A DNA stretch of 63,571 nucleotides, the filler included, from Collodictyon triciliatum (lineage: Eukaryota), in assembly GCA_043381765.1 (NCBI GenBank). It is 5 parts of 5 records of this genome, joined end to end, with 100 filler letters (N's around TTAATTAATTAA, not from the genome) between each part and the next. Parts side by side here need not be neighbours in the genome. Positions count along the whole stretch, not along the records: positions 32,339 to 55,147 come from JBHJMP010000178.1; 4 more parts are not named here. The stretch is one strand, 5' to 3'. Below are positions 112-63,571 of this stretch, in pieces (position 1 is the stretch's first letter; each line of letters starts with the position of its first letter). The position numbers were made by a program, and so were the translations under genes. A model generated the notes under the pieces. The model searched no databases. It was not told the DNA's origin and was given only the letters and a program-made list of their open reading frames with translations.

Positions 112-3100
112 CCTTGTTTCTGAGTGGAACCGCGCTGTATGTGATTGTTTTGGTGACTCCTGCTTGGGTTGGTAAATTATATACATAATCTCCGGATGTC
201 ACAGGCTGTTGTGTCTCAAAAACGCTTGTAATGTCATCCATCATATCCTACATTTCAGAAAATCGAAGAACGCTCATATTTAATGAATCCTTTTTCTTGT
301 CTATGTGGAAAAAACTTTCTTTCAAAGAATAGTAGATAATGTGTTAACCTTGTTCGAGGCACTCATCCAATCAGTATATACAATCTTTTTCATGTCTTCC
401 TCGCTCACACCAAGGATGGAATCTGGAGGCTTATTTGACGTGTAAAGCTTTCCGTTGCCTTTCAGATTTATAACCAGACTTGTAATACTTCCAAGAACCT
501 GAATGTGGTTAGATTCGATCAACAGGAAACCAACCCGAAAGCTTGACAAGTAAATATACATAGAGAAATAAGTATGCAATTTCCTGCTTCTTGGAATAAA
601 ATATCGTTTGCACATGATTTTTACTTGTTGCAAATGCGTCCTTGCTTTAATAGACTCTCCGAATGATATCGAGTTTTCGATCGCAACGCCTGCCTATGTG
701 ATGATATTTTTTTTGGCTGTAATTATTCATTCATCTTTGTGTAACATGATGAGTGTTAGAGTGTTTCATTTATATATGCGTTCTGTTGAAATGTGGCTTT
801 AAGACATACTTGGGCACTAAATGCCTGGAGAAGGTCCTCATCAACTTCATCAAACTTCTGCCCGCTTAACTGAGTCCAAGAAGTGAGACAATAGATTTGA
901 ATTTACATAGTGTTATTATTTTTTCAGTTGTATAAGACCTTTTGTTAAAGGAGGTAGTATCAAAGTCCAATCACAGGTAAATGAGCATTCACTAGATGTG
1001 GCAAACCCTACCTTATTAATCATCTGTGTCACACCAACAATTTTTTGCTGCATTGGATTAATGATTGGCATACATAAGATTGTTTTTGTTCGGTATCCTT
1101 TATGAAGAATATATTAGTTGAATCAATTTCTCACAACCAGTTACATATGATGCAAGGGGAAAGTTAACATCAACATGAATTTATAATATGCTTTGTCTAC
1201 AAGTTTAGTATAAAAAATGAATGAAAGAATAAAGGGATAGCTTATGCTGCAGAAAAATTCTCACCGGTCTTTCTATCTATTTCCGGATTGAAACGGGAGT
1301 CTTCATACGCTTCTGGTATATTTAGTGTTTCTCCTGATGTTGCGACATGGCCAGCTATACCTAAGTTCATAGGAAATCGAATTTCGGCTGCTCCTTCTGC
1401 TACCTGCGACCAAAGCTCTTTCCTCTCCTTTAAATTAATAGTATTGTTTATATCACCTTCGTCCATTTTTCTTTTCTTTTCTTTTCTTTTCTTTTTTATG
1501 GCAATATCTCGAATATTGTTAAATGATGTTAATAAAACCACCGGCTCCTCTTTTTTTTCTCTAATTTGATGTAAATAAAGTATTATCTTGATGTATTTGT
1601 TGGTTTATGATGCTATTCTATCGGCTATTCGAGTTATTCGTTTATACTTCTGGTGTGTATGTGTAATGTATACCTGGTCCACCAGGAATAACGTACATCG
1701 ATCTGCTTTCAGTAACTCTCTTGCCTTCTGCATGATAACTCGACACAAAGCCTGAGTACAAAATGTTTCAATGGATAAAGAGAAGCAGGAAACAAAAAGA
1801 TTTTTTGGATAATTCGACTGTGCATATTTTTTAAAAGAAAAAAGGTTTATCATGCCACTCAGCACCAATAACCTTAAGATTCAACTCTGATGAAAGTTGT
1901 CTTGATAACTCCAATATTACAGATATTCTATGTTGTGTTGTAACAGAGGCCTTGTACAGTTTTGCATTCCGAAGGAATACTCCTATGTTTTTTTGATGTA
2001 ATAAACTACTTAAAATGTGATACTTTAAGATTTTTTTTAACTACGTGATTGGTTAATTACAATTATATTCCCTATTATTTTGGTTAATGTCTTTGATACA
2101 TAGATAATTAGATGCAATCTAACCTGTTTGTGAAGCAATTATTTGAAGACATTGGTCATCAAGTGAATTAAATGGCTACAGACGAAGTTTCCGCGAATAT
2201 TTATTTTATTTATTTATTTTTTTTGCGTGGGACAAAGGAAATAATAGATAATCAGTTAAATGCTGTCTAGTTATTCTAATTATTTATGTCGATAATCACT
2301 AGCTTAAAAATGTTTATTATCTTTTGAATCAATATTACTTGATTTGATGGGAATCCGTCATGATTCAACTTATTGATGGCCTGAACAATCCCGACAACCT
2401 ACACGGAATAAAAAAACTGTTATATGAAATAATTATGCGTTTGTAGTATGTGCACGCTATACTAATTTTTCAAACTTTGAATAACATAGAGAATTATAGT
2501 ATGAACAATTGGCATCTCCTACTTTTCCGCTAACAGGGTCCTTGATGGGAGTGGAAAGTACACTTGTTATTTCAGAGCCAGAAAATGGCTCAATTTCATT
2601 TAAATATCTTGAATCCTTAAAAAGAAAAAATTAGAATATGATAAAGGGTTAAGTATGAAAAAATGTATAAAAAAAAGAGTACGTTTTTTATCATTATCAA
2701 AAGTAGTTTTATTGAATTATTTACCTTAGATGCATTGGGAGTATTCAAGCTTTTTCCTAACTGCAGTGCGGCTCCGGCTAACCCCTGAATAAATGACACA
2801 TTAGTATTTCAGAGAAATATTCAGAAATGACATGTTTAATGTAGATACCTGTCCTATCTGGAGTCGGATCTCTTTTTCCTCATTTTTGGTGTCTATCGAT
2901 ACCAAGTCTTTTGTAATATCATCAATTTCGTATACTAATGCACTGATGGAAAACAATAGTGAACAAATTAGTAAAATATATGGATTGTTTTAAATGTTAT
3001 TGAATGTAAAAAAAAATGTAGTTCCAATTAAATATTTTTTCCTTTTTTTTTATTCTTCCTTTCAATTTTGCGCAGGATGGTGAAAAATATTTTTTCCTTT

Positions 3101-4337
3101 ATTCAATTCAAAGGAAGGAAGGGTTGTTCCCATTAAAATATTAAAAAAAACTATCTTTTATGAAGCTAAAATATACCGCTCTGATTGAAGAAATCGACCC
3201 GCGTCTTCTGATATTTTATCCCTGGCTTTTTCTGCGCTTAGTTCCGCTGCGATGGAGGATGACTTGTTTGTCACTTGAAGTAATTTATTTACTTTCTGCG
3301 TGAAAATATTTTCTTAAAATTCATGCAATTTTTGCGAATAGTACCAGTATTAAGTATGAGTAAAACACGTGGCCATATCTGTATTAGATTTTGTATCAAT
3401 ATCAATTTTCTTTATCAACATAGTTATGTGTTGCTTAATTATTTGAAAGGGTGCCATCGATTTTATTCACGAGAATTGATTTCAAGCTATCGAAATACTT
3501 TAAAAACTGTGGCAAAATCTTCCATAATAGATTTTCGGGCATCCGAGGGGAGAAACTCCAATCTTCCAGCAAATTCCCTCTCTGACATTGTACCTGATAT
3601 GAGGTCCTTCGTTTCCACCCAAACAGAAAGTAAGCAAGTAAGTCAATGGGAGAGGAGGAAATCTTTGAGATATTTTAGGATTACAAGAATGTATGGCGAT
3701 GACGGAGAGTCATCCAAATAGCTTGGCCGGGCGTAGTCATATACAAAAACCCTGGAACAATTGCTATTAATGTTTTAAGTAACGAGTGTGATAAATAAAT
3801 TAAAAAGGGAATGATGAGATAAAATTAAAACTTTTTTCAATTAAAAAATTCCGTAATTATTAAATTCGAAAAGAAGAAAGAAAGAAAAAAAGGAAACTGG
3901 TAAACTCACACTTTAGGACTTTGCGCAACTCGTTCCTTTTTATATAGAGAATTATTAGTATTCGATCATACATCCGTTTTATTTATGAGCAAATAAATAA
4001 GAAATATAAGTTAGATGAAGCGCACCTTTCTTCTGGATTGTTCAGGAATGGCATCTGTAACCCTAGGTTCTGCCAATGGCGGTTGTTCTGCGTTATCATC
4101 ATCTAATTCAAATTGGTATATTTTAGAAAGAAATTGATGGAATTCTCTAAACTCTTGCAAGTGCGCAAATAGCATGTAACGAACTGCTTTTTTTCTCGTA
4201 TTTGGACGTTTTATAAATACTTTAGCGAAAATAATACCAAATCCCATTAACTTATTTGCAGCAAAAGACATTCTCCTTTCTCTTCTCACAGAAAAATCCT
4301 CTTTTACAACGTCTAATTGTGACTTTGCTGTGCTTGC

Positions 4338-4582: not shown

Positions 4583-6637
4583 AAGGAATGTGATGGGGTG
4601 AGAGGATTACATATGAGAGTCTAGTTGGCCAGATTTTCCCGTCTCAAAATGATATAATAATAAACTGAAGTTACTAAACTCGGTGTTTGTACTATTTCAC
4701 CTTTTTGGTCCACGCCCGGAAGTATTTGCACGCACTTTTGTGTTGGGCGCTGTCCTTTAGTTTCCCCTGGAAAGCCATCGAATGAATTTTTCTGTATGTA
4801 TAAAATATTTTTATCAGAATAATGAAATATAATTTGAATAATCATATATGTAGCTATGGTTTGACCAAAAAACGTGGTGTATTATTAAAAGTTATATATT
4901 TAGACTTATCAATTTAAATCTGAGTTTTAAGACACTTTGAATCGAATAAAGGAAAAAAATCTCAGTTTTAAGTAATTACCTTCTCACGAGGCTTTTTATC
5001 TCCTAAGATGGGAAGGGATGTATGGCTCGAAACGTTTGTTAATGTTGGTGATTTTGGTGCAGAAAGTAATTGAGAGTTAGTTTGGAACCCATTTGAGTAG
5101 GACTCTGTCCCATGCGACCGGATTCCTGAACCAGGCATAGGTGAAGAGACAGATATTGCTTTAAGGATTCCGTCCAACTGGATAGGTCCATCAGTTATTG
5201 ACTTTCGAGGACCCAGCGAGAAAGACATTCTCTACGAAACATATTGGGATTGTCTCAATTAGCGGAACTCAATCACTCTAGTTGCAGGTAAAGCATAAGC
5301 ATATGTTGATATAGGAAGAAAATGAAAAAAAAATATGGCGAGAATTTTATGTATGAATGTTCACTTATACGATTCATAAAAGTAAGGCAATCATACGTGG
5401 TTCGCTATGAGTGCTTCTCGCTGTTGTGGGTTGAGTGGCTTCCGTGGAGGACGTGGATTTCTATCGCTCTACAGTCAATAAAGTGCATAAATGGTTCACT
5501 ATTATTAAATCCAGCCGGGTTCGTTTTTAAGCATATTTTGTTGCGTATTACTATGGGCATATGTATCTATATATTGGAGAACAAGAATTTAAACACAGGT
5601 TAAATAAAAACCAACGATAGTGGCACCCTCTAAGGAAAACATGATAAAATACAACTGTAAAGAAAATTATAAAGACGCATTACAGAGTCATCTTCCGATC
5701 CAAAGTCATCGCTCGTACTTAATCTATCAGCACCTTGTCTTTTCCCTGATTTATCAAGACGTTTTGCTGTAGAACTTTCGGAACGTAGATTTGAAGTCTA
5801 CAGCAATACAAATGACGCTTTTGAGTATAGGAAATGACAAAATGAATCCTCTTTTTTTTTATAACTATTATTCACATACAAGTTTAACCAGAGCATTAGA
5901 GAGAAAAATGTAATCAGTTGTTCTATTTGGAAGTAAAATTATTAATTCGCCCATGCAATACCTTTTTTTCATCCACAACTCTACCAGGAGAGCGATATTT
6001 TGAGGGATGTCCATCATCAGAGGATGATAGATTTAAAGGCAAGGATGCTTCAAGGAGAAAAAAAAAAAGAAAATTGTTGACGTTATGAATAATGATATCG
6101 ATTGGCTTTAATGGCCATAACTATAGTGCTTTCAATAATTGGAAACCCATGGACATTTTCAAATACATATGAATTCATGTCCGATATAAGAAGATAAGTA
6201 ATCAATTGTATCAATTCCACTCACAACTAGCCATATCTGTATCGAATCTATAGGATATACAAGTTGACTTAATGTAGGTGATATTTGAGGGCATATATAG
6301 CAAATATAATAGAATGAAATATTGAAGAACTATCATCGTGATGTATACAAATCCATGAAGGATATACTATAGATATTAATATCAACATCAAAGATGACTG
6401 AACTTTGGCAGATATAATCTGACCATGTCTGTTGGGCGCGTCGTTTTACATGAGAAGAACCCACCTTATCTCACTCGAAACGTTGTCACAGCCACTTTTC
6501 TTCCAGGAATCAGTCAACAGTTGGTCTTTATATAAAAATATGAATCCATATTTACTTAGAGTCTGGACAGTTTTATATGGGTGTGCGCTTGTTTTCTCAA
6601 TAATTAATTCCCGTTGAAGAGTTTTTGCTTCTTCCAT
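112..6637 (-). CDS. Multi-exon GAF-GAF-PAS signalling protein (probably a nucleotide cyclase or phosphodiesterase; 3' end lost at the contig edge)
   Basis: GAF exons: [16 protein letters not shown] (~1680-1750), [52 protein letters not shown] (~1265-1420), [28 protein letters not shown] (~1012-1097), [15 protein letters not shown] (~810-870). A first GAF lies at ~2120-2950 (LVSIDTK...[18 protein letters not shown]...VGIVQAINK). PAS-like exons at ~348-498 and 112-246. Linkage of the N-terminal exons (3170-6637) is inferred from shared strand and GT-AG junctions. Confidence 0.75.
3037..3125 (-). mobile_element. Family A mini retro-insertion with a nested family B copy
   Basis: Core tttttcctttattcaattcaaagg at 3091-3114. 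Outer duplication gttccaattaaatatt (3021-3036) / gttcccattaaaatatt (3126-3142). Confidence 0.7.
3046..3084 (-). mobile_element. Family B mini retro-insertion (39 bp)
   Basis: Insert ttttttattcttcctttcaattttgcgcaggatggtgaa. Perfect 16-bp duplication aaatattttttccttt at 3030-3045 and 3085-3100. Confidence 0.8.
4932..4956 (+). mobile_element. Family A mini retro-insertion (25 bp)
   Basis: Insert acactttgaatcgaataaaggaaaa between aaatctgagttttaag (4916-4931) and aaatctcagttttaag (4957-4972). Confidence 0.8.
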
Positions 6638-7237: not shown

Positions 7238-7337
7238 NNNNNNNNNNNNNNNNNNNNNNNNNNNNNNNNNNNNNNNNNNNNTTAATTAATTAANNNNNNN
7301 NNNNNNNNNNNNNNNNNNNNNNNNNNNNNNNNNNNNN
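7238..7337. other. Artificial contig linker (N-TTAATTAATTAA-N)
   Basis: Six-frame stop linker at 7282-7293 inside 100 bp of N; the same design recurs three more times. Confidence 0.95.
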
Positions 7338-18318: not shown

Positions 18319-19515
18319 ATGGTGAGTCGCGTGTTCATCAGTGTATCACAACCATTGAATCGAATAAAGGAAAAAATCAATGTGTCACAAAGAAAGCGTC
18401 TCTATGGCCCTCAGAGGCCTTACCTGCCACAACAGAGTCAAACTAACTCGCTCCTCAACCACCCCGAATCCAGTCGAAACCACGGTCAGCAGCCGACAAA
18501 CTCCCCATGGGCCAAAAAGAAGGCAAAAACTATGTATGGGCTGGCAAGCCTTCACTAATCTTTCCTTGTATATGGCCGCTAGTGCGCACATATTTTACGC
18601 AACGTGGCGACGGATGTTTATTTTGTTAAGCCTGAAAAATTGCCAAAGAAGTTCCCATGCGCCTTAACTTTAACCTGATTTATTTTTGTTTTCCTAACTT
18701 CATTGTCAGGTTCATGAGGACCGCATCCACGAGGTGGCTGTCAAATATGAGATGGAGAAGGCGAAGGTATGGGAGCGTGACTGGGGATTTCTACACGAGG
18801 AATATGTAAGGATAATATCTCCCCTTTACGATTCCTTTTTATAGCTTCATTCTTCTTTCAGTATTTCCTTCTACCTCTTTTTCTTTTTCTTTTCCTTTTC
18901 CTTTTCCTTTTTTCTTTTCCTTTTTTCTTTTCCTTTTTTCTTTTCTTTGTCTTTATCTTTTTTCTTTTTGGTATTTTTTTTTTGGCCATTCTTTGTTTGG
19001 GTATGATAGTATCTGAACCATCCTCCATCTTGGCATGCTGAGAACTCTTCCACCAAACTGAGAAGCAGACTAACTCCCCTTCATTCTGTGCATGCTTCCT
19101 TGGTAAACGGAAGGACTTTTTACACAGTGATAATGTTGCTCGAATAGGGTGGTGCTGCTCCAAAGAAGACTCACGACGAATACACCGAGGAGGAGCTGAA
19201 GAAAATGAAGAGCGCTACTTATGTAAAGGAGGTTTGTATTGGGGATTGTCTAAGTTCTTGACTGTTGGCATAAACTTTCCACGCCTTTTTTATGCTAATT
19301 CGAACTGTTGTTTTGATTTTTTCCTGATAAATACATCCCTTGCCTTCTTTTTCTTTTTTTTATCACAGTCTGAAAAAATCGGCAAGCTTCCTGCGCAAGG
19401 TGTCAGTCTTGAGGTCTTCCCAAACACAGAGCACCGTCGAAAAAAGATGGACTTATACAACGACCGCTTCGACGTCGAGTTTGACCGCCAGCGAAACGCA
19501 AAGTCAAGCAACTGA
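18319..19515 (+). CDS. CIMIP1/C20orf85 (LLC1 family)-like ciliary microtubule inner protein
   Basis: Four in-phase exons (18319-18321, 18710-18805, 19148-19231, 19369-19515) give MVHEDRIHEVAVKYEMEKAKVWERDWGFLHEEY...SATYVKESEKIGKL...SLE. The V-x-x-D-x-I...E...W-x-x-x-WGFL pattern is characteristic of this family. Confidence 0.65.
18352..18375 (+). mobile_element. Family A mini retro-insertion (24 bp) in intron 1
   Basis: Insert ccattgaatcgaataaaggaaaaa between atcagtgtatcacaa (18337-18351) and atcaatgtgtcacaa (18376-18390). Confidence 0.75.
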
Positions 19516-20146: not shown

Positions 20147-20246
20147 TTTTATGTGTCTTTTATGTGTCTTTTATGTGTCTTTTATGTGTCTTTTATGTGT
20201 CTTTTATGTGTCTTTTATGTGTCTTTTATGTGTCTTTTATGTGTCT
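20147..20246. repeat. (TTTTATGTGTC)n 11-mer tandem repeat at a contig end
   Basis: Same unit as the reverse complement of 63479-63571. Confidence 0.95.
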
Positions 20247-20346
20247 NNNNNNNNNNNNNNNNNNNNNNNNNNNNNNNNNNNNNNNNNNNNTTAATTAATT
20301 AANNNNNNNNNNNNNNNNNNNNNNNNNNNNNNNNNNNNNNNNNNNN
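20247..20346. other. Artificial contig linker
   Basis: TTAATTAATTAA at 20291-20302 within N. Confidence 0.95.
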
Positions 20347-32238: not shown

Positions 32239-32338
32239 NNNNNNNNNNNNNNNNNNNNNNNNNNNNNNNNNNNNNNNNNNNNTTAATTAATTAANNNNNN
32301 NNNNNNNNNNNNNNNNNNNNNNNNNNNNNNNNNNNNNN
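32239..32338. other. Artificial contig linker
   Basis: TTAATTAATTAA at 32283-32294 within N. Confidence 0.95.
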
Positions 32339-34184: not shown

Positions 34185-37100
34185 GGAAACTATACTATGT
34201 GTGTGTTCGCACTGTACCTCGCTCCACTGGCCAATCTGTGTTCTTTTCAATGGACCATGAGCTTACATATATGCGCTTTTTCAATGACTTTGGCCCGCTG
34301 AATCTCGGTCAAACTTATCGTTTTTGTGTTACATTACACCATAAGATTAAAGTATATTTCTTTCGAATAACTTTGCAATCAAAGGGCCACAGATAATTAG
34401 ATACGATTCTTAAGTCCAAGTTGCAATTGCATTCAAATAGAGTTGAATCATAAAGCATCTGATTGATTTTCATGCAAAGGAAGCAGGTGGCAAGCCCTTG
34501 TACTACTATACCGGCCACGAACCACAAAGACGTGCAAACATCGCGTGTCTCATTAGCATTTATTTGGTGAGTTTTTTTCATATTTGATTTCTTCATGGCA
34601 TAGTAAAATCTTATTGCCATCCTATACTCAATATATCCAACAATAGATATATTTGACTCAGAATTTCTTCTCTTTTTTTCTTTTTCCTTTTAATACTTTG
34701 AGCAGGTCCTCGCACTAGATTATGAACCTGAGGATGCTTTTGCGCCTTTTATGAAAGCACATGCAACTTTTGTCCCCTTTCGTGACGCATCGATGAATCC
34801 GTCCACTTTCAACCTCACCATCATTGATTGTTTGCGAGCTGTTGCAAAAGCAAAGCGAAATGGATGGATAACTATGACATCCTTCAATCTTCAAGAGTGA
34901 GTGGGCTTTATGATTATAACGATTACGACCCCTTGACAAAAAGTGTGAATGAGGATTAGTGTAAAATTGTATTTGAATAAAGAGTGATCTACAAAAACCA
35001 AATAAAAATAATCCTGAATACATTAACATACCTTAAGGTTTGAGTACTATGAAAAAATGGAAAATGGAGACATGAGCTGGGTGCTCCCAGGCAAGTTCCT
35101 GGCGTTCAGTGGCCCTCAAGCGATGTCCTCAAAAGCAGCATTTCGAACACATCCACCTGGTTTTTAAATATTGATTGTTCTTTCATTTTTGTGGAGATTT
35201 TTTTGTCCATACAATCACATGAGGCTCTATCTATGTCAATATTCGTAAAGAAGCTAGGAATTCATATTATGTCTCCTTTCTCTAGAATTTTATGTTCCAA
35301 GCTTCAAGAAGCTCGGTGTTAACACCGTCATCAGATTGAATAACAAATGCTACGATAGAAAGAAGTTCACAGATTCGGGTATACTCTAAAACTCGATGAA
35401 TTCACTATTTCACAACTGCATTTAAATTATATTTTCAAGCCCATACTTCTTAGTAGACTAATAATATAATACAGGAATATCACACTACGACTTATACTTT
35501 CCAGACGGTAGCACCCCGAGTGATAGTATCCTGGCTCGCTTTTTAGAAATAGCTGAGAAGGATATGGGTAACTGTCTTCATCTTTTGAATCTGTCATGTC
35601 CCCTGATTTCCCTTTATTCTATCGTTTTTTATATTTTAGATTTGAGTATATATTTTTTTCCTTTATTCGATATATTAGATTTGAGTATATGAATATTGCA
35701 TGAAATTAGGGGGGATAGCCGTGCATTGCAAAGCTGGCCTTGGTAGAACAGGAACATTGATTGCGTGCTATATAATGAAGCACTATCGTTTTACAGCCCA
35801 TGTAATCCTTTCATACTTGAATATGTCCAAGTCGTATTGTTCATGATATAAATTGAAGAAGCCCCCTCATATTGTCCATCTTATAACTAACCTTTTGGTG
35901 TGCAATTATGACTCATTTTTGTGTATTGTACCAAATGATACAGGAAGCAATCGGATGGCTACGGTTGTGTCGCCCGGGAAGCATAATTGGTCCACAGCAA
36001 CATTTTTTGCAAGGGTATTGTAATTTTTGCCTCTTATATATCTCGTAGTGCTCCCTTTAAGTTTGCACCAAATTGAAAATCGCATGGTGTTTTCCTATAT
36101 TAACTAATATTTAAAAAATACATCCTTCTCAATTCTACACATTCTAAAATATGACATGCACTTTCAATCAGAATGCAAACCAGACTATGGAAAATGGGTA
36201 AGTTGAGACAACATCATATCAAAACCAAAAAGAAGGATAAAATTTTAATGGTTTATTTGTTAGGTGAACTCACAAACCCCGATGTCCTTCCTGGTAAAAT
36301 ATGACCTATATATTGGATAGACTTTGATCATTATTATTTTTACTATTATCTTATGAATTTATTTGTGCTGTCAAATCATTAATTCAATAATCCCCAACCA
36401 CCTTTGTATGTATCTGCAGCGGAGAAAGAAAAGGAAAAATTGGTTAGTAATTTTGGCATGTGGATTTTTTTTTGTGTCTCTCAATTTGTGCTTATTTCTA
36501 TCTCTTTGTCTCTCTTAAGTTCTCAATCTTGTCAACAACAGACCCCTCCTTCATCTGCACTGAACGACGCAGGCAAAAAGCAAAGCAGTCTTACTCAGGT
36601 TCCTGACACATCTGCATTTTTTTGACGTTGTATATGATTTTTCCCCTTTATTCAATTCAAAGAGACTTTGTATATGGTAGTTCATATATGAACAATTCCT
36701 TTTTTCGTAGCTCTTTGATGATTATTCTTTCCTTCCACCATCCGTTTCGAAAAAGTCTTTGTCCTCGTCCATGAACGAATCTCAGATGCCAAAAAGAGGT
36801 ATAATTGTGCATCGCCAAAGTATTCATAGATTATTTCCTATCCACATCTAACTCCTTTTTTAGGACACTTTAATAGTTTTATCAACACAGAATAAAATAA
36901 AGAAACTAATGAACTCATTCTTAGAGCTGACATCACCATTAAGCATCCACAGTTCAACCTCGTGAGTCACAGAAATCTTCTTTTTTTTCTATTTTCATTA
37001 AAAGTATTTGTTATCTCATAAAAAATCGTTTAGATTATCTACAAGTGCAAAGTCGGATTCTCTCCAGTATGATATACGAAGAAGCAAAGAAAACACTGGA

Positions 37101-38353: not shown

Positions 38354-38401
<48 letters not shown>

Positions 38402-38412
38402 AGCGCAGTCAG

Positions 38413-38436
38413 TCCCTTGAATGGAATAAAGGGGGG
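38413..38436 (+). mobile_element. Family A mini retro-insertion (24 bp), intergenic
   Basis: Insert tcccttgaatggaataaagggggg between aacatagcgcagtcag (38397-38412) and aacatcgcgcagtcag (38437-38452). Confidence 0.8.
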
Positions 38437-39426
38437 AACATCGCGCAGTCAGCAGCTTCCAAAAACAACAATAATAATGTAATCTAATGCCTGTGGGAAA
38501 AGGTCACGTTATTGTGCCGCGTCGCCCCATCCTCACTCACCACCACATAATTGCGTAGGAGCTAAAGTCCTATATACGTTTGTTAATTCTTTGGCAATGT
38601 AACATCAATAGTATTAAATACACATAAATATGCTAAATGTATGTAAAAAATAAAATTATAAATGATTCAAAGTGAACTATGGTGAGGTAAGAATAATATA
38701 GTATATTTTCCACATATAAAATCAAAGGAAACCTATTAATAGAACGCTATTTTTAGCTAAAGTATAAAAATAGATTCCGTTGAGATTTATGTGGGCAAGC
38801 AATAAAATCAATTTATGCGTTCACACGAGGCTATTAATAGCATTTTCTTGTTCTTGGGGCTGAGGGCCAAAAATAGCCCCAAAGTCATGGTCATAAATAT
38901 CCCCAAGGCAACCGGAACAGCAAACGGGGCCGCTCCAAACCCAATCGTGTTATCTACACTGCCCGATTGAATGGAGATTTGTGAGCTACATAACTGATCT
39001 AAATATAAACATGATGTCGATGGTGGACTCACCGTAATATATATAGGAGCAGTGCCAGACAAGGGCGAGTTGGATGTGCTGGTGGGCTTTGCTTCGAGAT
39101 GGACAAACACAAACACAAACACAACAAACATCCCCGCAGTGGAAAATGTCACCTTCGCAATCTCCTGTGACAGCAGTTGGATTTTACAAAGCATCCGCAC
39201 ACGAGATATCAAAACCTCTGATGACCCGATCAAATTTCACATGCCATGTCGCTCAAAATTTGAATATAAGATAGAATAAAGTATTATAGTGAACATACCC
39301 ATGAAAAAGCTAAATATTGCGAAGCCTTCATACTCTAACCATAACAATCATATCCTCGGCAGTGCGGTAGGTTACAAGGAACTACAGTGCGACACAAACC
39401 AAGCTAAGAAGAAAAGACACCCAAAG

Positions 39427-40612: not shown

Positions 40613-42293
40613 TTATTTGGTTTTCTTCGCCGAGGGTGTCACATTTTTTTTAACCGTCTTTGGTGTCTGTTTGACAGGTTGTGGGGACTTCTGACCCTTC
40701 GGTTCATTTGGAATTTCAGTCTTTTCTGAATTATGTTTTTGCTTCTGCTTTTTCTTTTCTACTTTCGCTGGTTCTTCTTCTTCTTCTTCTTCTTCTTTCC
40801 TCTTTCTCGAAGATTGTAAGTCCTCATTAACGGGGAACGATTTCGCAAGAAACTCACGAAAGGACGTCAGTTTGTCATCAGAGTCATCGAATGGTGTTGA
40901 CGGTATGAGTTTTGGCAGGTTGCTAGAGAATAAAAAGGAGATAAGAAAGAGAAAAATAGTTTAAGACATTATTGAAACCAAAATTTTATGGCAGGAAGAA
41001 AAATATGTAATCTCTAGTATTTATGACCAAAGTCAACATCCCCACCAACCTGCACAAAATTGAAAGGAAGAATTAAAAAAAAAGAAGAACGTATTTAGAT
41101 GATTGGCATGTATAAATATGACTCTAGCGAACCTTCCAATCAGCTTCAAGCTGTATGCTATAGAAAAGCATTCTTGAAAGACTCTCATTCCTTCGACATC
41201 ATCGGCATCTGGTTGACATTTATTTGCCGTCAAAAAATGCTGGACTAACTGAATGACCTATTATCCAGGTGTTTGTTTAAGGCAAAAAGAAAAAAAAAGA
41301 AGAAAGAAAAAAAAAGGAGTGATGGAAGAAGTGATGAGTATACCATGAATATCTTTGAAAAGAACATAACAATTCCAATCGTGAGGATCAATCAATGGAT
41401 CAATACCCTCTCTGATGGTAAGCTCAAAGCTGTCTCCAAAAACTGGTTCAGGTCTCGTATCTCTGAGCAATTGGAACAAACAGCCTAAAAAAACAGTGAA
41501 ATAATATGTTCATAAAAATTATAATAGGCAGTGATTCAGATATTGCGTAGAACTGATGATGCTCACCACGATTCGAGAGAGGGAAAACTTCTTTGCATGA
41601 AAATCTAGATCCCAATCGGTTGAAAATCGGAAGCGAGTATCTTGTTGGGCAGCCTATATAGAAAGATAGGCAAATAAATATTAAGGCAGGCGAGCATTAT
41701 CATTTCTGATTGGTTCAAGAGGAGGTAAAATACTCATACCCCATCAACAAAACAATATCCTGGAACTTTGCAAAAACTGCAGTGGGTGATCTATGAATAT
41801 TTGGAATTAATCATCGACTGAATAATTATATGACATGAGGCAACTCTAACAAAAGTAGTATACAGCGTATGTTTTTAATTAAGGAATCATAATACTAATA
41901 CTAATAAATATTGGAACCTGCTTCCCACATTGCAGGATGAGCTCTGTAACCTTCGCGTGATCCTCCACAGCAAACAGATTCAACAAAAGTGAGAGAAAGT
42001 CTTCCGAGTCAAGGACATAGCCGCGTGGCGCGATCAAAGGCCGCAGATTTGGGGCAAGGCTCTGCTTGATGTCAGTAATTCAGATGAGTTAGAAAAGAAG
42101 AAAAAAGATAGAAAAAAAAAGAACCCTACACAGCCCATTGCCAGCAGAAACAGCCTATCCTGTCCGCAAGAACTTTGGATGCAAAAGACTGTTGTTTTCC
42201 TTTTTTTTCTTTCTTTTTTGTTTTGAAAAATAAAACGATTTTCACCTGAAGTCGCTGTTGCAGCTTATAGCACGTGTCTTCCACCGATCCCAT
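40613..42293 (-). CDS. Zinc-binding protein with a degenerate HNH-endonuclease-like fold and Lys-rich tail
   Basis: In-phase exons give MGSVED...FCWQWASLAPNLRPLI...HCSFCKVPG...FSTDWDLDFHAKKFSLSRIVAVCSNCSEIRDL...HFLTANKC...FQECFSIAYSL...KRKEEEE..KKKQKQK..KKTK-TAA. Confidence 0.55.
41034..41083 (+). mobile_element. Family B mini insertion, intronic
   Basis: caacatccccaccaacctgcacaaaattgaaaggaagaattaaaaaaaaa, near-identical to 48383-48425; TSD not clearly resolvable. Confidence 0.7.
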
Positions 42294-43328
42294 CCTATGT
42301 CTTTGTACGCCAGGTTAACTTTTTGCTCTTCCCAACAGTCCAAGCAACTTGCTTCTGATGCAGACAGAGAAAACTTTTGACGACAGTGGGCAACATAGTG
42401 GAAGAACAACGAAACAAAAAGGCGAGAAAAGACCACGAGTTACGGTACTTATTTCATCATACATTATTTATCAAGACAAGTCGTGTTTTCTACTACATCG
42501 CCTCTGCAAAAGCGACCAAAACAAAGATTCAGTTTATAGCGAGAGTATGCCGAGGTAGTATGAGGCGGTGGGACAGGGTTGGGAGTAGGTCTATGAATCG
42601 AAAATCGGAGCAAGCTTTTCTCTCCAAAATAATATGGACATGGCTCGCAAGTCCATTTATGAATGGATATAAGAAAGGAAGTAGAGAAAAGAAATAGTTC
42701 TTCAATACCAAGAACCTGTCGGCATGAATCCGAAATTTAACAAGGTGGCCATTAAAAAAATAGCATATATACAGGACACATTCCCACTTCAGTTAAGCAT
42801 TGTTTCTACCGGCCGGGCATGGCCCCGAAACCATGAGTCAGTCAAGAGTTACCTCTCGATACAGGTCGAACGATAATATATTTTTCTTTCAGGGTTGTCC
42901 AACGAGAAATATCAAGAAAGTTACCCGGTTGTCTCCTAAAGACATAGATCAAATATAATGAAGTATGGTTTAAAAATTCTCGGAGGCGGACAGTGAAAAG
43001 AATTCGTCCGAATATATATCGAGAAGTAACTGCCATTTGTATACCTTCATCAACCCCGAAAACTTAAACTGTTCTCCTCTCAATCCCTACCCAAACCACG
43101 TGGTGCGTTGGAGTTTAACCATCAAAGGTAGAATAGTTGGCCTGGGAAAGTACTTTCTCTCCCGTGTACTTCACTGTATTTATTTGTATATACAAGCAAG
43201 AGTACCCGTGCTTCGCAGCGGGAATGGGAAAAGAAAAGAAAAGAAAAAAAGAAAAGAAAAAAAGAAAAGAAAAAAAAAGAAAAGAAATCACTGAGGAATG
43301 AATCAGAGTAACTAATACTCAGCACTAT

Positions 43329-43350
43329 TTTTTTCCTTTATTCGATTCAT
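43329..43350 (-). mobile_element. Family A mini retro-insertion (22 bp) with an empty paralogous site
   Basis: Insert ttttttcctttattcgattcat between ctaatactcagcactat (43312-43328) and ctaatactgagcactat (43351-43367). The paralog has a single ccaatactgaacactat at 58293-58309. Confidence 0.9.
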
Positions 43351-43420
43351 CTAATACTGAGCACTATATTCGTACTTATCTTGCTGCCCGTGGGTCGATG
43401 GCTAGAGCTCGCTCCGTCTT

Positions 43421-43452
43421 TTTTTTCTTTCCCTTTATTATTCGTTTCAAAT
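43421..43452 (-). mobile_element. Family A variant mini insertion (32 bp)
   Basis: Insert ttttttctttccctttattattcgtttcaaat between agctcgctccgtctt (43406-43420) and agcttgctccgtctt (43453-43467). A decayed version is present in the paralog at ~58420-58470. Confidence 0.7.
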
Positions 43453-44373
43453 AGCTTGCTCCGTCTTATTCATAGGTTGTTATACTCACGGGTTGGTGTA
43501 GCCGGTGTCTTGATCGTCGGTGTGTTTCGGTGCATAACATGTGTTGTAAAGGATGTGGTAAAGAGACCTTTTCGCTCTCTGAGTCGGCTGTGTCGGCCTT
43601 TTCAGTTTGCGTTCGGTTGGTAGGCATTCCATGGGGCGGGGCTGTGGCGCCGGTCTCCTGGTAGGCGGTCTCGTCCTTCTGGGATCGCTCTTTCCGAGAC
43701 CTTGCTTGCTTTTTGTTTTTGTTTTTTTTCGGCTTCAGAATGAGGCAGCTGGAGAGAAGAAGGAAAGAACCCCAGTGTAATAATATTATTTTCTGGGGAA
43801 TGTGTCTTTTGTCTCTCCCAGTGAGATCGTTTCTCTGCAAAAGGCTTTTTCTTATCCATTTTGTTTTTTTATTTTTCCTCTCGACTCTGTCTGTTAGTTT
43901 GGTCACTACACTTATTCACATTTTGTGGTGTAGAATATATCGATCTTTGGGACTTTGTCTCACGAAAACAAAGCAAACAAACGAACTTGGCCTGCAAGTT
44001 TATTTTTTCCATTGGTATTTGACATTAATATCAATCATGGCTATTGATATCAGCTATAATTAAAACAATCAAAATTGAAAATCGTGCATGTTAGATAGAT
44101 GAAAAGATTCGACAGAGTCAGACATTACACATGCAATCCCAACGATTAGATGCGATTGGCCAAAGTTTTTTTTTTTTTTTTGTATTTTGTTTATGTCCAT
44201 CGTTGTTGTTCTTATTTTTCTCTGTGCCTCCTCCTTCAATCCTCCTCAAGCGCCATCTAGTCACCATTCTGTGATTTCCAATCATCAGCTGTTTTGTCTT
44301 TTCATCCATTCATCCAATCATTCTTTTCCTTCTTTTTTTTTCTCACGACTTCAAAAACCCATCGCCCCAAGTT

Positions 44374-45430: not shown

Positions 45431-49393
<3,963 letters not shown>

Positions 49394-50143: not shown

Positions 50144-50660
50144 TCCTATATTCAATTCAAAAAGAAACTGGGATTTTTCATACAAAGTGGCGAGATAGCT
50201 GCGCATGGGAGAGAGCAAACGAGAGTAACAGAAGATGCTACCGTGGAGAGACTAGCACTGGAAAGAAATCAGTGATAGCGAGCTGGTCAGACGGGCGTCC
50301 CAACTGGTTGATTGGTTGTGTGGGTAGCAGTGGTTGGATATGCTGTGGGAGATAACGCACGACACATTCCCACATCCCTCTTCGCTTGCGGTCAGAGTAG
50401 CGAAGAATGCGAGCGTGTTTCAGCAGGCTGTTCAGGAAGCTGTATTGCACGAGGCTCTCGAGCCTGGATACATTGATTTCTCGTTCGAGTGAATCATTGG
50501 AGCGAGAGAATGCACACACATTCCATAAGGCCCACAGCATATGTCCCCTTGTGACTGTCCAGAGTATTCTAGAGTCGTGGGTCATTTGGTATTGTGGGCC
50601 AAGCAGGATGTCAGACGCGCTGAGTCGGTTGGGGACATAATCAAGCTCAGGGAGCATCTT
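50144..50660 (-). mobile_element. 5'-truncated non-LTR retrotransposon remnant (ORF2 C-terminus-like plus 3' UTR)
   Basis: Intronless GC-richer ORF 50238-50657 with DILLG...LWTVTRGHMLWALWN, resembling the Trp-rich tail after the zinc knuckle in L1/Tx1 ORF2. About 75 bp after the stop comes tttgaattgaatatagga, one mismatch from the family A terminus. Confidence 0.5.
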
Positions 50661-55147: not shown

Positions 55148-55247
55148 NNNNNNNNNNNNNNNNNNNNNNNNNNNNNNNNNNNNNNNNNNNNTTAATTAAT
55201 TAANNNNNNNNNNNNNNNNNNNNNNNNNNNNNNNNNNNNNNNNNNNN
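55148..55247. other. Artificial contig linker
   Basis: TTAATTAATTAA at 55192-55203 within N. Confidence 0.95.
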
Positions 55248-57647: not shown

Positions 57648-58274
57648 GGATTCATTTGAACAATTAATTGATAAAAAAAAAGAAAAGAAACCACAAATAA
57701 ATAAAGCCGAGGAAAATGCCTTCGCCTCTAGGACAAGGAATGAGCTGTGGACAAGACAGTGGGAAAACCCCGGATTTTGTGGTTGGAGGTTTTGTGTTTT
57801 GGGTGGAAAGAAGAGAAAAGAAAAGAAAAAAAGAAAAACAAGATAGGAATGAGAGAATATGTTCTCACACGCTGACTTTTCTACCCAAAGTGAATCAGCT
57901 CCAACGCGATTTCTGGTTGTATTCGAGACTGACAGGAGAGCGGATAAAGTTGTCGGGTCGATGAAAGTACGCACATGGCAGTTACTTCTCAAATCGATTC
58001 CGACGAGTCCTTTCAACCATCTATCTCAGACAAGATTTACATCCTATTTCATTCCACTGCATGAGTCTTTTGAGGGGACAACGGGTCACTTTCCTTACGT
58101 TTCTTGCTGTGCGACTCAGATAGAAAGCGACACATCGTTGTTTGTNNNNNNNNNNAGAAAAGAGAGAGAAAAGAGAGAGAAAAGAGAGAGAAAAGAGAGA
58201 GAAAAGAGAGAGAAAAGAGAGAGAAAAGAGAGAGAAAAGAGAGAGAAAAGAGAGAGAAAAGAGAAGATAAACGG

Positions 58275-59085
58275 ATGAACGAATCCTAGCAACCAATACT
58301 GAACACTATATTCATACCTATCTTGCTACCTGTGGGTCAATGGCTTCAGCTTGAATCATATAAACCCTTTCTCCAGTAGCTTCTTGCTCCCTCGCTGCTC
58401 GTGAGTTGATGTTTTGTTGCCTTTTTTGCTCCCCTTAATTATTATTATTATCATCATTCGTTTCAAAGAGCTCGCTCCGTCTTATTCATAGTTTGTTGTA
58501 GTCACAGGTTGGTGGTAGCTGGCAACCTGTTCTTCGGTGTGTCTTGGTGCATAACCTGTGTTGCAAGGGATGTGGTCAAGTGACCTTTTCGCTCTCTGCG
58601 TTGGCTTCGTCGGCCTTCTCGGTTTGCGTACGGCCAGTAGGCATTCATTGGCGCCGGTCTCCTGGTAGGCGGTCTCGTCCTTCTCGGAGTCGCTTTTTCC
58701 GATCGCTTGCGTGTTTTTGTTGTTTACCTTTTTTTTCGGGTTCAAAATCTGGTGGGTTGAGTGAAGAAGGAAAGAAAGAGCGCCAGTTTAATAATATTAT
58801 TTTTTGGGGAATGTGTCTTTTTCACTCCCAGTGTGCTTATTGTTTTTCAGCAACGGAGACTATTTCTTATTCATTATGTTTTTTTCTTTATTGCTCTTCT
58901 CAAGTCTCTCTCTCTGTGTGATCACCTTATTTATTCGCGTTGTGAGGTATAGAATATATCGATTTTTGGAAAAATCCTTGGCACAAAGAAACAAAGAAAC
59001 AAAGAAACAAAGAAACAAAGAAACAAAGAAACAAAGAAACAAAGAAACAAAGAAACAAAGAAACAAAGAAACAAAGAAACAAACA
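58275..59085. repeat. Dispersed ~0.7-kb repeat, copy 2, ending in (AAAGAAAC)n
   Basis: Collinear with 43295-43985. Confidence 0.85.
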
Positions 59086-59572: not shown

Positions 59573-62500
59573 TCATGATTGAGTGATTTGGGCGATATCA
59601 TTTGAGGTGCGGATGATTCTGGGGATACTCACTTGGGTTGGATGAGAGCCTTTAAGTGAATATATATTTGAGTATAGCGATGACTTAGGCACAGTTACCG
59701 GGACAAAAATCAAAATCAAAATCAAAATCAAAATCAAAATCAAAATCAAAATCAAAATCAAAATCAAAATCAAAATCAAAATCAAAATCAAAATCAAAAT
59801 CAAAACAAACAAACTTATGTATGAAGCAAAAAAATAAAATAAAAAATAAATCAAGATGAAAAACTGGGTTATCTTAAACCCTAAGGTTATTTCATCAATT
59901 TGCATACCTGTCTCGATTAGATGCTGTCTCCAACGCGCGAACGAACCTGGTGGAACGACTATAATTTCAACAGGCATTATGGAGCCATGCTTACGGAGAT
60001 TTCCGTACTCTTTATTCTGCTGGATAATTGCATTGTCTAGTGTATCTCGGTCCCTGTCATTTATATATGGCCTTGGTTTTTCTGTGTCAGCATATGGGTC
60101 ATTTGGGGTGTCTATTTCAAGAAAAGCAACATAATGTGTTGATTTTGCCGAGTTATCAACCAAGGAGGAATAACAAAACGAGAAGTCCTTGATTATTCGC
60201 CCGTCCTGAGCCCAATCCAATTCAAGACCATCTATCGCCTTTGTTATCTCATTCTCTGTGACTTTCTCTCCTGCCATTGCCAGATATTCAGATACTCTGT
60301 AGAGAAACTCAACCTTCAAAGCCTGAGCAAGTTAACATTAGCAAAAGAAATTGCAGACACATAAATTACAGATACCTATTTGGTGTGGAGCAGAAATAGA
60401 ATAGTGGAAAAATCAAAATCAAAATCAAAATAAAAAAAAAGCAGAAAAAGTCATACACAAATAAATTTTGATTTTTTTTAAAACAATCACCTGATTCATA
60501 TGATTTTGAACTTTTACAACCTCTCCCAGCCTACAACGATATAATCCTGAGCTATTGGTAAGAACAAGTTCGTATGCCTCATTTTTCTTAGTTTCATGTC
60601 CAGCCACTACGATAGGTGCCTCTTTGTTGATATCAGATTCTGGTATGAACTCAAAGAAATTTGTCTTGAAATCAAGCACAAAAGTCTTTTCCGAAGGCTC
60701 GTAATTTAGCTGATGTTTCAGATGCCATATGAATATGTGACAATAAATTGATAAATTAAGAAATATTCATGGTTGGATGATTATAAATTCTTTGAATTTT
60801 TTTAAATAATAGAACATCAAATAGTGTACTAACAATTCTTTCAAGTTCAAAGGAAGTAATTGTGGTTGTAAGAATTTCAACTTTTACACGGCAGGCATGT
60901 AATGGGTAAAAAATGGCCTACCGCAATCAATCCTTCAGGAACATGATAGCAAGTTGATATTATCGGCAGCCCACGAATATATTTCTTGATTAGTTTCGTT
61001 CGATAAAATGCCTGGTCTCCCGTATCATTTGTTATAACTGCTTTTAAACTTGGCCAAATGCGGAGGATTCCACGCCCACTTCCGTACCCATCGCAGCATG
61101 TAAAGGCAGTTGAGAGCTATCAACATATTTTGAACATTTCTTTTCTTTTAAAAAATGAAAGGCCTCAATCAAATAGTTTTGTAATTAAGAAAATTATATA
61201 CTATCATGCTGTTCTTCATGCCCGAGGCAAAATTGAAATTTTTTTTGTCATCTTTTGAAAAAAGTCGCTCATATGCAAATAACAGGACTACATCACAAAG
61301 TTACAGACCTTATCTAACTCGCTCGCTCTTGCTGGGTCAGGTTGAATGAGTATCTGCAAGTCTTTTCGTAATTTTTCAGAAATATTGACTGTTTCCGATA
61401 TGGTTCCATTACGTATATCTTCAACAAGGGATTTCCAATGTCGCTCGAGGTCCATGAAAGCATAGTATAACCCGCTAGCAGTATTGCTCTGAAATAGCAC
61501 CCATGTTAATTTCGCTTGCAAAATGTATACAAAAATGATTTGAAATAAATCTTTCGTAGTTATACTATCGATTATTTGATTTCAAGATGATTTCAAATTC
61601 TTTTCTATGGCTCTAACCTCTATGAATGACAACTGTTTGTCTCTCAAAGCAAAAAGAAAGTGAAGGTAATTAGCGCTGGGCTCATCTTCCACTTGACCAA
61701 TAGTCGAGGGTGATGTGTAGAAGCTCAACAAAAAATCAGAGTTGGCTATTTCATGACGTCATAGTTTTTAGATGAAATATTCTGCTACTTTGAATCAAAT
61801 AAAGGAAAAAAAATATTCTGCTACATCTCTGCCAGGGACTTCAGGACTTTAAAGGATGAATTTTTTTTTTTTGGAAAATAATGAAAGATAGATAGATAGA
61901 TAGATCAGTTAATAAATTGCAAAAGATACACGTAGATCTAATCGATGTGACATTTTAAAAATTTAACACAAAAATACCAGGTGATCTACTGTTCGGGCCA
62001 GTTTTCACACCGGCTTTAGAGGTGGTCAAGTTAGTGTTGTAAAAAAATCGAAGAGATTTCTTTAATTCGCCTTTAATTACAGGAAAGGCTTTTACAGTGT
62101 TTATATAAAGCATTATGTTTTCAGTCATAAATGCCTCCTAATTAATATATTTGTATTTAAACTAAGTCTCACAAATATTTATTTAGCGATTGAATATCAG
62201 TATTCAAGAATATTCTCAAATTAAATTAACGTATTTCCATGTTGGTTATGGCTTTTTTTTTTATTTTTACATGAAAGGCTTATCAAATAGTTAAATGGAG
62301 AATCTTGATTACCAATGCAGATGTGAAGGTAACTGGAACCATTCTCTTGGATCCATCTGATTCTCTGGTTGTTACAATCTGTGCAATTGCATCGGCAGAT
62401 AGGATGTTTTGGGAACCCTTATCGATTTTTTCTATGGCAGCCTGTTATTTAATTTGATTTGTAAACTAATTTGGAGAGTCATATAAAATAAAGTTCATGT

Positions 62501-63336: not shown

Positions 63337-63478
63337 CTGCAAATTGAGAGTGTATTTGAGCTCATATAGGAGCCATTTAAAACAACAATAACAACAATAA
63401 CAACAATAACAACAATAACAACAGCAATAACAACAACAACATGAAATAACACACACAATCATACGAAAAGACATAAAA

Positions 63479-63571
63479 GACACATAAAAGACACATAAAA
63501 GACACATAAAAGACACATAAAAGACACATAAAAGACACATAAAAGACACATAAAAGACACATAAAAGACAC
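63479..63571. repeat. (GACACATAAAA)n 11-mer tandem repeat at the window end
   Basis: Reverse complement of the unit at 20147-20246. Confidence 0.95.

Follow-up and report, generated by a model that had tools for sequence, protein, structure and literature searches.

A filled and empty site pair in Collodictyon triciliatum suggests a family of very short, A-tailed, retroposon-like insertions

Results

A filled site and its empty counterpart in two copies of a ~700-bp repeat

The window analyzed here, the whole 63,571-nt stretch of DNA from the Collodictyon triciliatum assembly GCA_043381765.1 (hereafter the 63.6-kb window), harbors two copies of a dispersed ~700-bp repeat that differ by a short insertion (Table 1). 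In copy 1 a 22-bp unit, TTTTTTCCTTTATTCGATTCAT (43329–43350), lies between two instances of a 17-mer, CTAATACTCAGCACTAT (43312–43328) and CTAATACTGAGCACTAT (43351–43367), which are identical at 16 of 17 positions. In copy 2 the 17-mer occurs once (CCAATACTGAACACTAT, 58293–58309) and there is no 22-bp unit. The initial annotation of this DNA had proposed just such a pair, a 22-bp insert with a 17-bp duplication facing a single 17-mer, and the sequences proved to be as it quoted them. At up to three mismatches the 17-mer is found at these three places only in the window, where shuffled sequence predicts 0.11. Global pairwise alignment under all three scoring schemes used places one 39-bp gap in copy 2 with both flanks aligned, and the size of this gap is exactly that of the unit plus one copy of the repeat (22 + 17). 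MAFFT misplaces a short stretch around the duplication, so that its gap is not clean, and the pairwise global alignment was used instead. A sensitive BLASTN search likewise pairs 43348–43409 with 58290–58351 (83.9% identity over 62 bp) in one high-scoring segment pair (HSP). The description of a filled and an empty site is therefore correct and the two sites are homologous, as the alignment suggested in the initial annotation was meant to establish. The comparison concerns a single locus, and the empty site is related to the filled one as a paralogue, not as an allele or orthologue.

The same annotation held that the motif arrives by insertion and duplicates its target, and the two copies support this view. 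In addition to the gap corresponding to the unit and one repeat, the 17-mers differ at a single position in 17, against a divergence of 16% locally (BLASTN) and 23% overall between the repeat copies around them. This low divergence fits an insertion that occurred after the ~700-bp repeat had duplicated. The reverse polarity, in which the unit was already in the ancestor of both copies and was later removed from copy 2 when the 17-bp repeats recombined or slipped, also has points in its favor: deletion between 17-bp direct repeats leaves exactly the sequence found in copy 2, and the window holds no outgroup copy of the ~700-bp repeat. In that case, however, the 17-mers should have diverged at least as much as the copies that contain them, which they have not. 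The timing argument is only modest on its own, because the binomial estimate for finding one or no difference between the 17-mers at 22% divergence, were the duplication as old as the split, is ~0.085. The stronger support for duplication of the target comes from elsewhere, namely the same insertion architecture at seven other, unrelated loci of the window (see next section), and these loci would leave the identity of the element unaffected even if copy 2 had lost its unit. We regard loss from copy 2 as very unlikely. Consistent in age with the favored order of events, the flanking repeat pairs of the eight family copies differ at 7 of 122 positions (5.7%), compared with ~23% between copy 1 and copy 2.

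A variant of the unit, 32 bp in length, is found 70 bp from the 22-bp unit in copy 1 (43421–43452). It had been noted earlier as a neighboring insert that appears decayed in both copies and so looks older than their split. The greater age is supported, the variant being present in both copies. In copy 2 the ATT run has expanded, extra sequence lies on the left (the variant spans about 58422–58466) and only the right-hand repeat (58467–58481) is clear; in copy 1, however, the variant is not very decayed and its flanking repeats are 14/15 identical. They are fresher than would be expected of an insertion older than the 23% split, possibly through chance or gene conversion. The ATT run itself comprises about two repeats in copy 1 (43437–43445), and a longer ATT/ATC run stands in its place in copy 2 (58435–58459); the latter looks like a microsatellite that was born inside a retroposon-like unit.

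The 22-bp unit belongs to a family flanked by direct repeats

Read on its A-rich strand, the unit is TTGAATCGAATAAAGG followed by about six A residues, and this sequence recurs. The 22-mer at three or fewer mismatches gave six matches in the window against 0.00 expected (100 shuffles), and an nhmmer profile of the copies returned eight at E ≤ 0.024 together with about four decayed ones among 61,792 non-N bases. The density is about one unit per 5–8 kb, and the clean copies sit at unrelated loci on different contigs. All family statistics come from this one 63.6-kb window.

Flanking duplications were examined for the core matches, defined as those with at most two mismatches (n = 9), by an adjacency test in which the left repeat ends no more than 10 nt from the unit and the right repeat starts no more than 8 nt from it. 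Seven of the nine are directly flanked by imperfect direct repeats of 13–17 bp, the repeat scores being 16, 14, 13, 11, 11, 10, 8, 3, and 0. The miss at 3096 is explained by a nested insertion of a second family (family 2, described below), which carries its own 13/13 duplication and caused the unit at 3090 to fail the test, while the miss at 50145 is a decayed or chance match. By comparison, where the exact motif occurs in unrelated contigs (metagenome or bacterial), 1 site in 112 scores at least 9, as do 77 of 3,000 random positions of the window, the latter mainly microsatellites. The 19-mer was found at 105 loci in metagenomes, all chance-like and without an adjacent duplication, and these served as the negative control. 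Bacterial and archaeal genomes contained seven chance matches to the unit motif, and viral genomes contained none.

The family also emerges from scans that make no use of the motif. A scan for short-range direct repeats passed 13 candidates; nine were inspected, four with inserts of more than 150 bp lying outside the count, and five of the nine are members of the unit family. A scan for a repeat, an insert ending in an A-run, and a second repeat returned five candidates, four of which are family members.

These recurrent copies bear on whether the filled site might be a local duplication with filler, that is, a tandem 17-bp duplication around 22 bp of junk made by replication slippage or by a templated insertion of the polymerase-theta type. 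In favor of this, simple repeats prone to slippage abound in the window, and the repair of breaks often leaves short tandem duplications with filler. However, the same 22-bp filler (zero to two mismatches) lies between unrelated duplicated targets at eight loci on different contigs, and templated insertions copy nearby sequence rather than a constant, genome-wide motif. This makes an origin by local duplication extremely improbable. A library or assembly artefact was rejected because the copies and their duplications have diverged.

Anatomy of the unit

The duplications of the eight copies are 13, 14, 15, 15, 16, 16, 16, and 17 bp long, a variable length such as is expected of retroposons that depend on a long interspersed element (LINE), for which the range is roughly 7–20 bp. 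Seven copies have inserts of 22–27 bp; that of the older variant measures 32 bp and that of the copy at 3090 ~36 bp. The two ends of the insert are unlike each other (TTGAAT... and ...AAAAAA) and are not inverted repeats of one another. On the A-rich strand the unit ends ...GAATAAAGG (...TCCTTTGAATCGAATAAAGG) and then passes into the A-run, with an AATAAA located two bases before the run. In seven of eight copies an A-run of about four to eight A residues adjoins the downstream repeat; the remaining copy instead has a run of G (38431–38436). At the junction on the A-run side the base at −1 is a pyrimidine in 7/8 copies (T in 4/8), and the base at +1 is A in 7/8, the latter being partly an artefact of assigning A residues of the tail to the repeat. 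The leading bases of the A-run read G in two copies, GGGGGG at 38431–38436 and GGGGAAAAA at 36638–36645, and could reflect slippage, an A-to-G change in the template, or untemplated addition.

In contrast to the constant A-run end, the 5′ end is ragged, with zero to five extra bases in most copies and 14 in the copy at 3090. These extra bases agree among copies: C is found at −2 in all five copies that reach that position and T at −1 in three of five. The fuller reading of the A-rich strand is thus (TCCT)TTGAATCGAATAAAGG followed by about six A residues, where TCCT precedes TTGAAT. The shared extra bases indicate a template longer than 22 nt, from which the copies were shortened on the 5′ side.

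The longest copy can be folded into a hairpin (8-bp stem, 7-nt loop) that precedes the A-run; its folding energy, −5.8 kcal/mol, is matched by 7 of 200 shuffles. One other copy beats its shuffles, borrowing flank bases to do so, and the would-be 5′ arm of the hairpin is where the shorter copies begin. This predicted fold suggests that the unit may be the 3′ recognition hairpin of a LINE of the stringent type.

Table 1. Positions of the ~700-bp repeat, the filled and empty sites, and the insertion units in the 63.6-kb window
Feature	Position	Strand	Details
~700-bp dispersed repeat, copy 1	43290–43985	+	Carries the filled site; without consistent ORF
~700-bp dispersed repeat, copy 2	58275–59005	+	Carries the empty site; ~77% identity with copy 1 (566 bases aligned)
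Target-site duplication, 17 bp	43312–43328	.	Adjoins A-run end of 22-bp unit; 16/17 identical to 43351–43367
22-bp unit of filled site	43329–43350	-	A-rich reading ATGAATCGAATAAAGG + A6; nhmmer E 0.0037
Target-site duplication, 17 bp	43351–43367	.	Adjoins 5′ end of 22-bp unit
Empty site, copy 2	58293–58309	.	17-mer once, no unit; 39-bp gap, BLASTN HSP
Older variant unit with 15-bp flanking repeats	43406–43467	-	Unit 43421–43452, 32 bp; repeats 43406–43420 and 43453–43467, 14/15 identical
Older variant unit, copy 2	58422–58481	-	ATT run expanded; right-hand repeat 58467–58481
Unit copy	4916–4972	+	Repeat 4916–4931, insert 4932–4956, repeat 4957–4972; 15/16 identical
Unit copy	18337–18390	+	Repeat 18337–18351, insert 18352–18375, repeat 18376–18390; 13/15 identical
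Unit copy with G-run replacing A-run	38397–38452	+	Repeat 38397–38412, insert 38413–38436, repeat 38437–38452; 15/16; long T-run before target
Unit copy, antisense to minus-strand GH3-family gene	61775–61824	+	Repeat 61775–61788, insert 61789–61810, repeat 61811–61824; 14/14
Unit copy	36624–36676	-	Repeat 36624–36636, insert 36637–36663, repeat 36664–36676; 12/13 identical
Unit copy, shorter 5′ end	35636–35690	-	Repeat 35636–35651, insert 35652–35674, repeat 35675–35690; 16/16
Unit copy with 14-nt 5′ extension	3030–3130	-	Unit 3090–3111; A-run end struck by nested family 2 insertion 3043–3084
Family 2 copy, nested in A-run end of unit at 3090	3043–3084		13-bp duplication 3030–3042 and 3085–3097, 13/13; made partly of the unit's tail
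Family 2 copy	41017–41102	+	Copy 41027–41090; unit of 40–50 nt, ends ...TTGAAAGGAAGAAT + A-run; 10/12-bp repeat, one indel
Family 2 copy within (AAT)n tract, intron of PP2A B56 gene (gene on minus strand)	48380–48426	+	
ORF, open reading frame; HSP, high-scoring segment pair.

A second short family, a nested insertion and the host genes

A second short A-tailed family, family 2, ends ...CTGCACAAAATTGAAAGGAAGAAT followed by an A-run and is represented by three copies in the window. Their 5′ ends differ, giving lengths of ~33, 43, and 47 nt. As judged from these copies, family 2 shares the build of the unit family: its copies carry flanking duplications, have ragged 5′ ends, and terminate in an A-run. 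One family 2 copy has entered the unit at 3090 at its A-run end, and a decayed older unit (at about 35606–35621) lies beside the younger unit at 35652–35674. The A/T-rich tails of old copies seem to attract new insertions.

Several copies reside in introns or gene regions. In each of the three cases in which the strand of the host gene is known, the A-rich strand runs antisense to that gene; the three are the unit at 35652–35674 in an intron of a CDC14-like gene, the unit at 61789–61810 by the GH3-family gene, and the family 2 copy in the B56 intron. This is the orientation expected if AATAAA in the sense direction of an intron is harmful. The unit at 35652–35674 is located just upstream of the DSPc exon (35685–35843). 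Read in the sense direction of the CDC14-like gene, it is a pyrimidine tract ~30 nt upstream of that exon, and this tract could be part of the 3′ splice region of the intron.

The presence of several copies in introns or gene regions also raises the question of whether the unit is a mobile mini-intron, resembling the introner-like elements, with the target duplication supplying splice sites; introners do make target duplications and do sit in genes. However, neither strand of the unit contains a GT, and in the three copies examined by eye (43329, 4937, and 18355) no consistent GT...AG pair is formed with the duplicated target. In these copies there is also no frame in which 39 bp, the unit plus one repeat, would be precisely excised. 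Moreover, the copies lie within introns of ordinary size rather than forming them. A mini-intron is, on these grounds, scarcely credible.

The ~700-bp repeat and the remainder of the window

The ~700-bp repeat that hosts the filled site has only two copies in the window, is bounded by purine-rich simple repeats, and contains neither a consistent ORF nor a Pfam match. Very conserved blocks are found inside it, for example around 43775–43820 and 43925–43950, and the repeat could be a regulatory region, a non-coding RNA, or an unclassified element. An inverted match of 200 bp (42883–43085 versus 57927–58126, 70%) lies left of the repeat and adjoins an N10 gap. The window is a series of separately assembled contigs, linked by N44-TTAATTAATTAA-N44 linkers at 7238–7337, 20247–20346, 32239–32338, and 55148–55247, which carry stops in all six frames; distances that span a linker are not real. 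Because the last of these falls between copy 1 and copy 2, the apparent 15-kb spacing of the two copies is not real.

The intron-split genes of the window encode a GAF protein, an ankyrin protein, a ROCO protein, a CDC14-like phosphatase, a cyclin, a PP2A B56 subunit, and a GH3-family protein. For the ROCO ORF one relative was recovered, from a transcriptome, at 52% identity; a search with the GH3 exon gave no match, the Atlas yielded GH3_C clusters only, and the B56 exon is too strongly conserved to be placed. Of the eight sequencing runs listed, six contain part of this DNA, the best share of words being 0.34, and no RNA run was listed among them. The GC content varies from 19 to 54% across the window, which is very rich in simple repeats. 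The Physarum genome is described in the available text of PMC4758236 as having comparable pyrimidine-rich and homopolymer repeats, a resemblance only. A perfect inverted match of 94–96 nt, composed of an 11-bp tandem repeat, joins 20147–20246 with 63471–63571 at two contig ends; the two contigs probably run into one and the same array of simple repeats.

Discussion

Target-primed reverse transcription as the favored origin

The 22-bp unit of the filled site is probably one copy of a very short, retroposon-like family made by target-primed reverse transcription of the LINE type. Six features collectively point to this mode of origin: the duplications of variable length, the A-run junction, the ragged but templated 5′ end, the empty site, the nesting, and the existence of a second family. 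In such a mechanism, a LINE-type endonuclease/reverse transcriptase would nick the target and prime on the A-run of a short RNA. Only ~20–35 nt would be copied, either from a very short RNA or in a reaction aborted very early on its template. A second nick, 13–17 bp away, would then allow the complementary DNA to be joined, and filling of the gap would duplicate the 13–17 bp in between. The template would probably be the 3′ end of a longer RNA, perhaps a 3′-terminal hairpin plus A-tail that is recognized by a stringent-type LINE, with reverse transcription or joining usually ending within the 5′ arm of the hairpin. At the locus described here, the older unit (43421–43452) would have inserted before the ~700-bp repeat duplicated and the unit at 43329–43350 afterward, such that the empty site was kept in copy 2.

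The alternative that has to be weighed most directly against this scheme is insertion at the DNA level, whereby a short double- or single-stranded DNA oligonucleotide is captured at staggered breaks 13–17 bp apart without passing through RNA. The agent could be a casposase-like or otherwise unknown integrase or transposase, or else the repair of a break. Indeed, duplications and a filled/empty pair show only that a staggered cut was made and filled in and do not reveal the nature of the molecule inserted. The short and nearly constant A-run is what a DNA-templated end would give, and the window contains no reverse transcriptase. It contains no transposase ORF either, and the unit lacks terminal inverted repeats. 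In addition, the duplications vary from 13 to 17 bp in length, whereas transposases and integrases give a fixed length. Finally, a ragged end with common extra bases opposite a constant A-run end is the polarity produced by reverse transcription from a 3′ end. We therefore consider insertion of DNA unlikely.

A number of observations nonetheless sit uneasily with target-primed reverse transcription. The A-run is short and nearly constant (~4–8 A) rather than a poly(A) tract that is long and variable, and in one copy a run of G takes its place. The canonical L1 target TTTT/AA is found at just two sites (the 38397 and 3090 copies), and T occupies −1 in only 4/8. The tight clustering of the 5′ ends is unlike random 5′ truncation. 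The hairpin is drawn from one long copy, while the others fold no better than shuffles or need flank bases. Searches with Pfam of 13 + 67 + 23 ORFs revealed no reverse transcriptase or LINE ORF in the window, so that the partner element is hypothetical, and the window provides no third copy of the ~700-bp repeat with which to polarize 43312–43367 independently. Lastly, an insert of 22–27 bp is, to our knowledge, far below the size of any described short interspersed element (SINE).

Comparison with known elements

DDE transposases generate target duplications of 2–11 bp, and those of the unit are much longer. The unit does share with miniature inverted-repeat transposable elements (MITEs) and other cut-and-paste DNA transposons its short length, its abundance, its target duplications, and a frequently intronic location. 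However, it differs from MITEs in having no terminal inverted repeats, in its asymmetric ends (an A-run versus a ragged end), and in the variable length of its duplications. A MITE or DDE DNA transposon was rejected on the grounds that there are no terminal inverted repeats and that the duplications, at 13–17 bp, are not fixed in length.

A closer likeness is found among products of the L1 type, which include 5′-truncated LINEs, processed pseudogenes, and Alu. In the portion of PMC11702581 available to us, human L1-mediated insertions are described as having discrete duplications of 12–18 bp, with broader ranges in 5′-truncated insertions, and junctions adjacent to poly(A). The unit resembles these products in its variable duplications of ~13–17 bp and in the A-run that abuts one copy of the duplication, in its ragged 5′ junctions with a few extra bases, in its apparent insertion at A/T-rich sites including the tails of older copies, and in its antisense bias within genes. 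In contrast to L1-type products, the inserts are only 22–27 bp long (with one of ~36 and one variant of 32) and have 5′ ends clustered within a few bases. Their A-run of about six residues is not a long variable tail, TTTT/AA is seen at only two sites, and no LINE was seen in the window.

Stringent-type LINE/SINE pairs offer a second point of comparison. In pairs such as eel UnaL2/UnaSINE1, as presented in the available parts of PMC1636434 and PMC4176376, the two partners have a common 3′ stem-loop tail, and the unit with its upstream bases can likewise form a 3′-terminal hairpin followed by a short tail; it is this part that the reverse transcriptases of such pairs recognize. Unlike UnaL2/UnaSINE1, the unit family disperses the tail module alone, lacking both a SINE head and a SINE body and being too short to hold an RNA polymerase III promoter, and its predicted hairpin comes from one copy. 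Among short SINEs, Platy-1, of ~100 bp, is called the shortest known in primates in the accessible text of PMC4864456. Like Platy-1, the unit is non-autonomous, dispersed, A-tailed, and flanked by target duplications; it is, however, about four times shorter and is without a recognizable promoter-bearing head.

A canonical SINE was likewise rejected, as the inserts of 22–36 bp leave no room for A and B boxes; scans of the window for tRNA genes and with Rfam returned no matches. The motif string of the unit was absent from the papers that could be searched, a search that did not take in Repbase, Dfam, or the repeat library of this organism.

What the units may mean for the genome

The units are likely to be extremely truncated copies of an ordinary LINE. 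Were that LINE a known one, the locus would be a tidy but routine example of a filled and an empty site. A bolder version of the scheme, possible but doubtful at present, is that a tail-only nano-retroposon exists, in which the 3′ recognition hairpin of a LINE and its A-tail (~25 nt) are mobile in their own right. If true, the unit would be the shortest retroposed unit described. A sense copy in a transcribed region could then create an RNA 3′ end at the unit via its AATAAA, regenerating the template without a promoter of its own. Such a family could also give rise to simple repeats of the pyrimidine and ATT kinds that fill the genome, the opposite strand of the unit being a ready-made pyrimidine tract.

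If an origin by target-primed reverse transcription holds, the genome of C. triciliatum carries retroposed units far shorter than any SINE, a finding that would bear on how little RNA a LINE reverse transcriptase needs for a heritable insertion. It would also show how micro-insertions evade repeat annotation, 22 bp being below the reach of most repeat finders. Finally, such micro-insertions would feed the growth of simple repeats and might supply genes with poly(A) signals or pyrimidine tracts.

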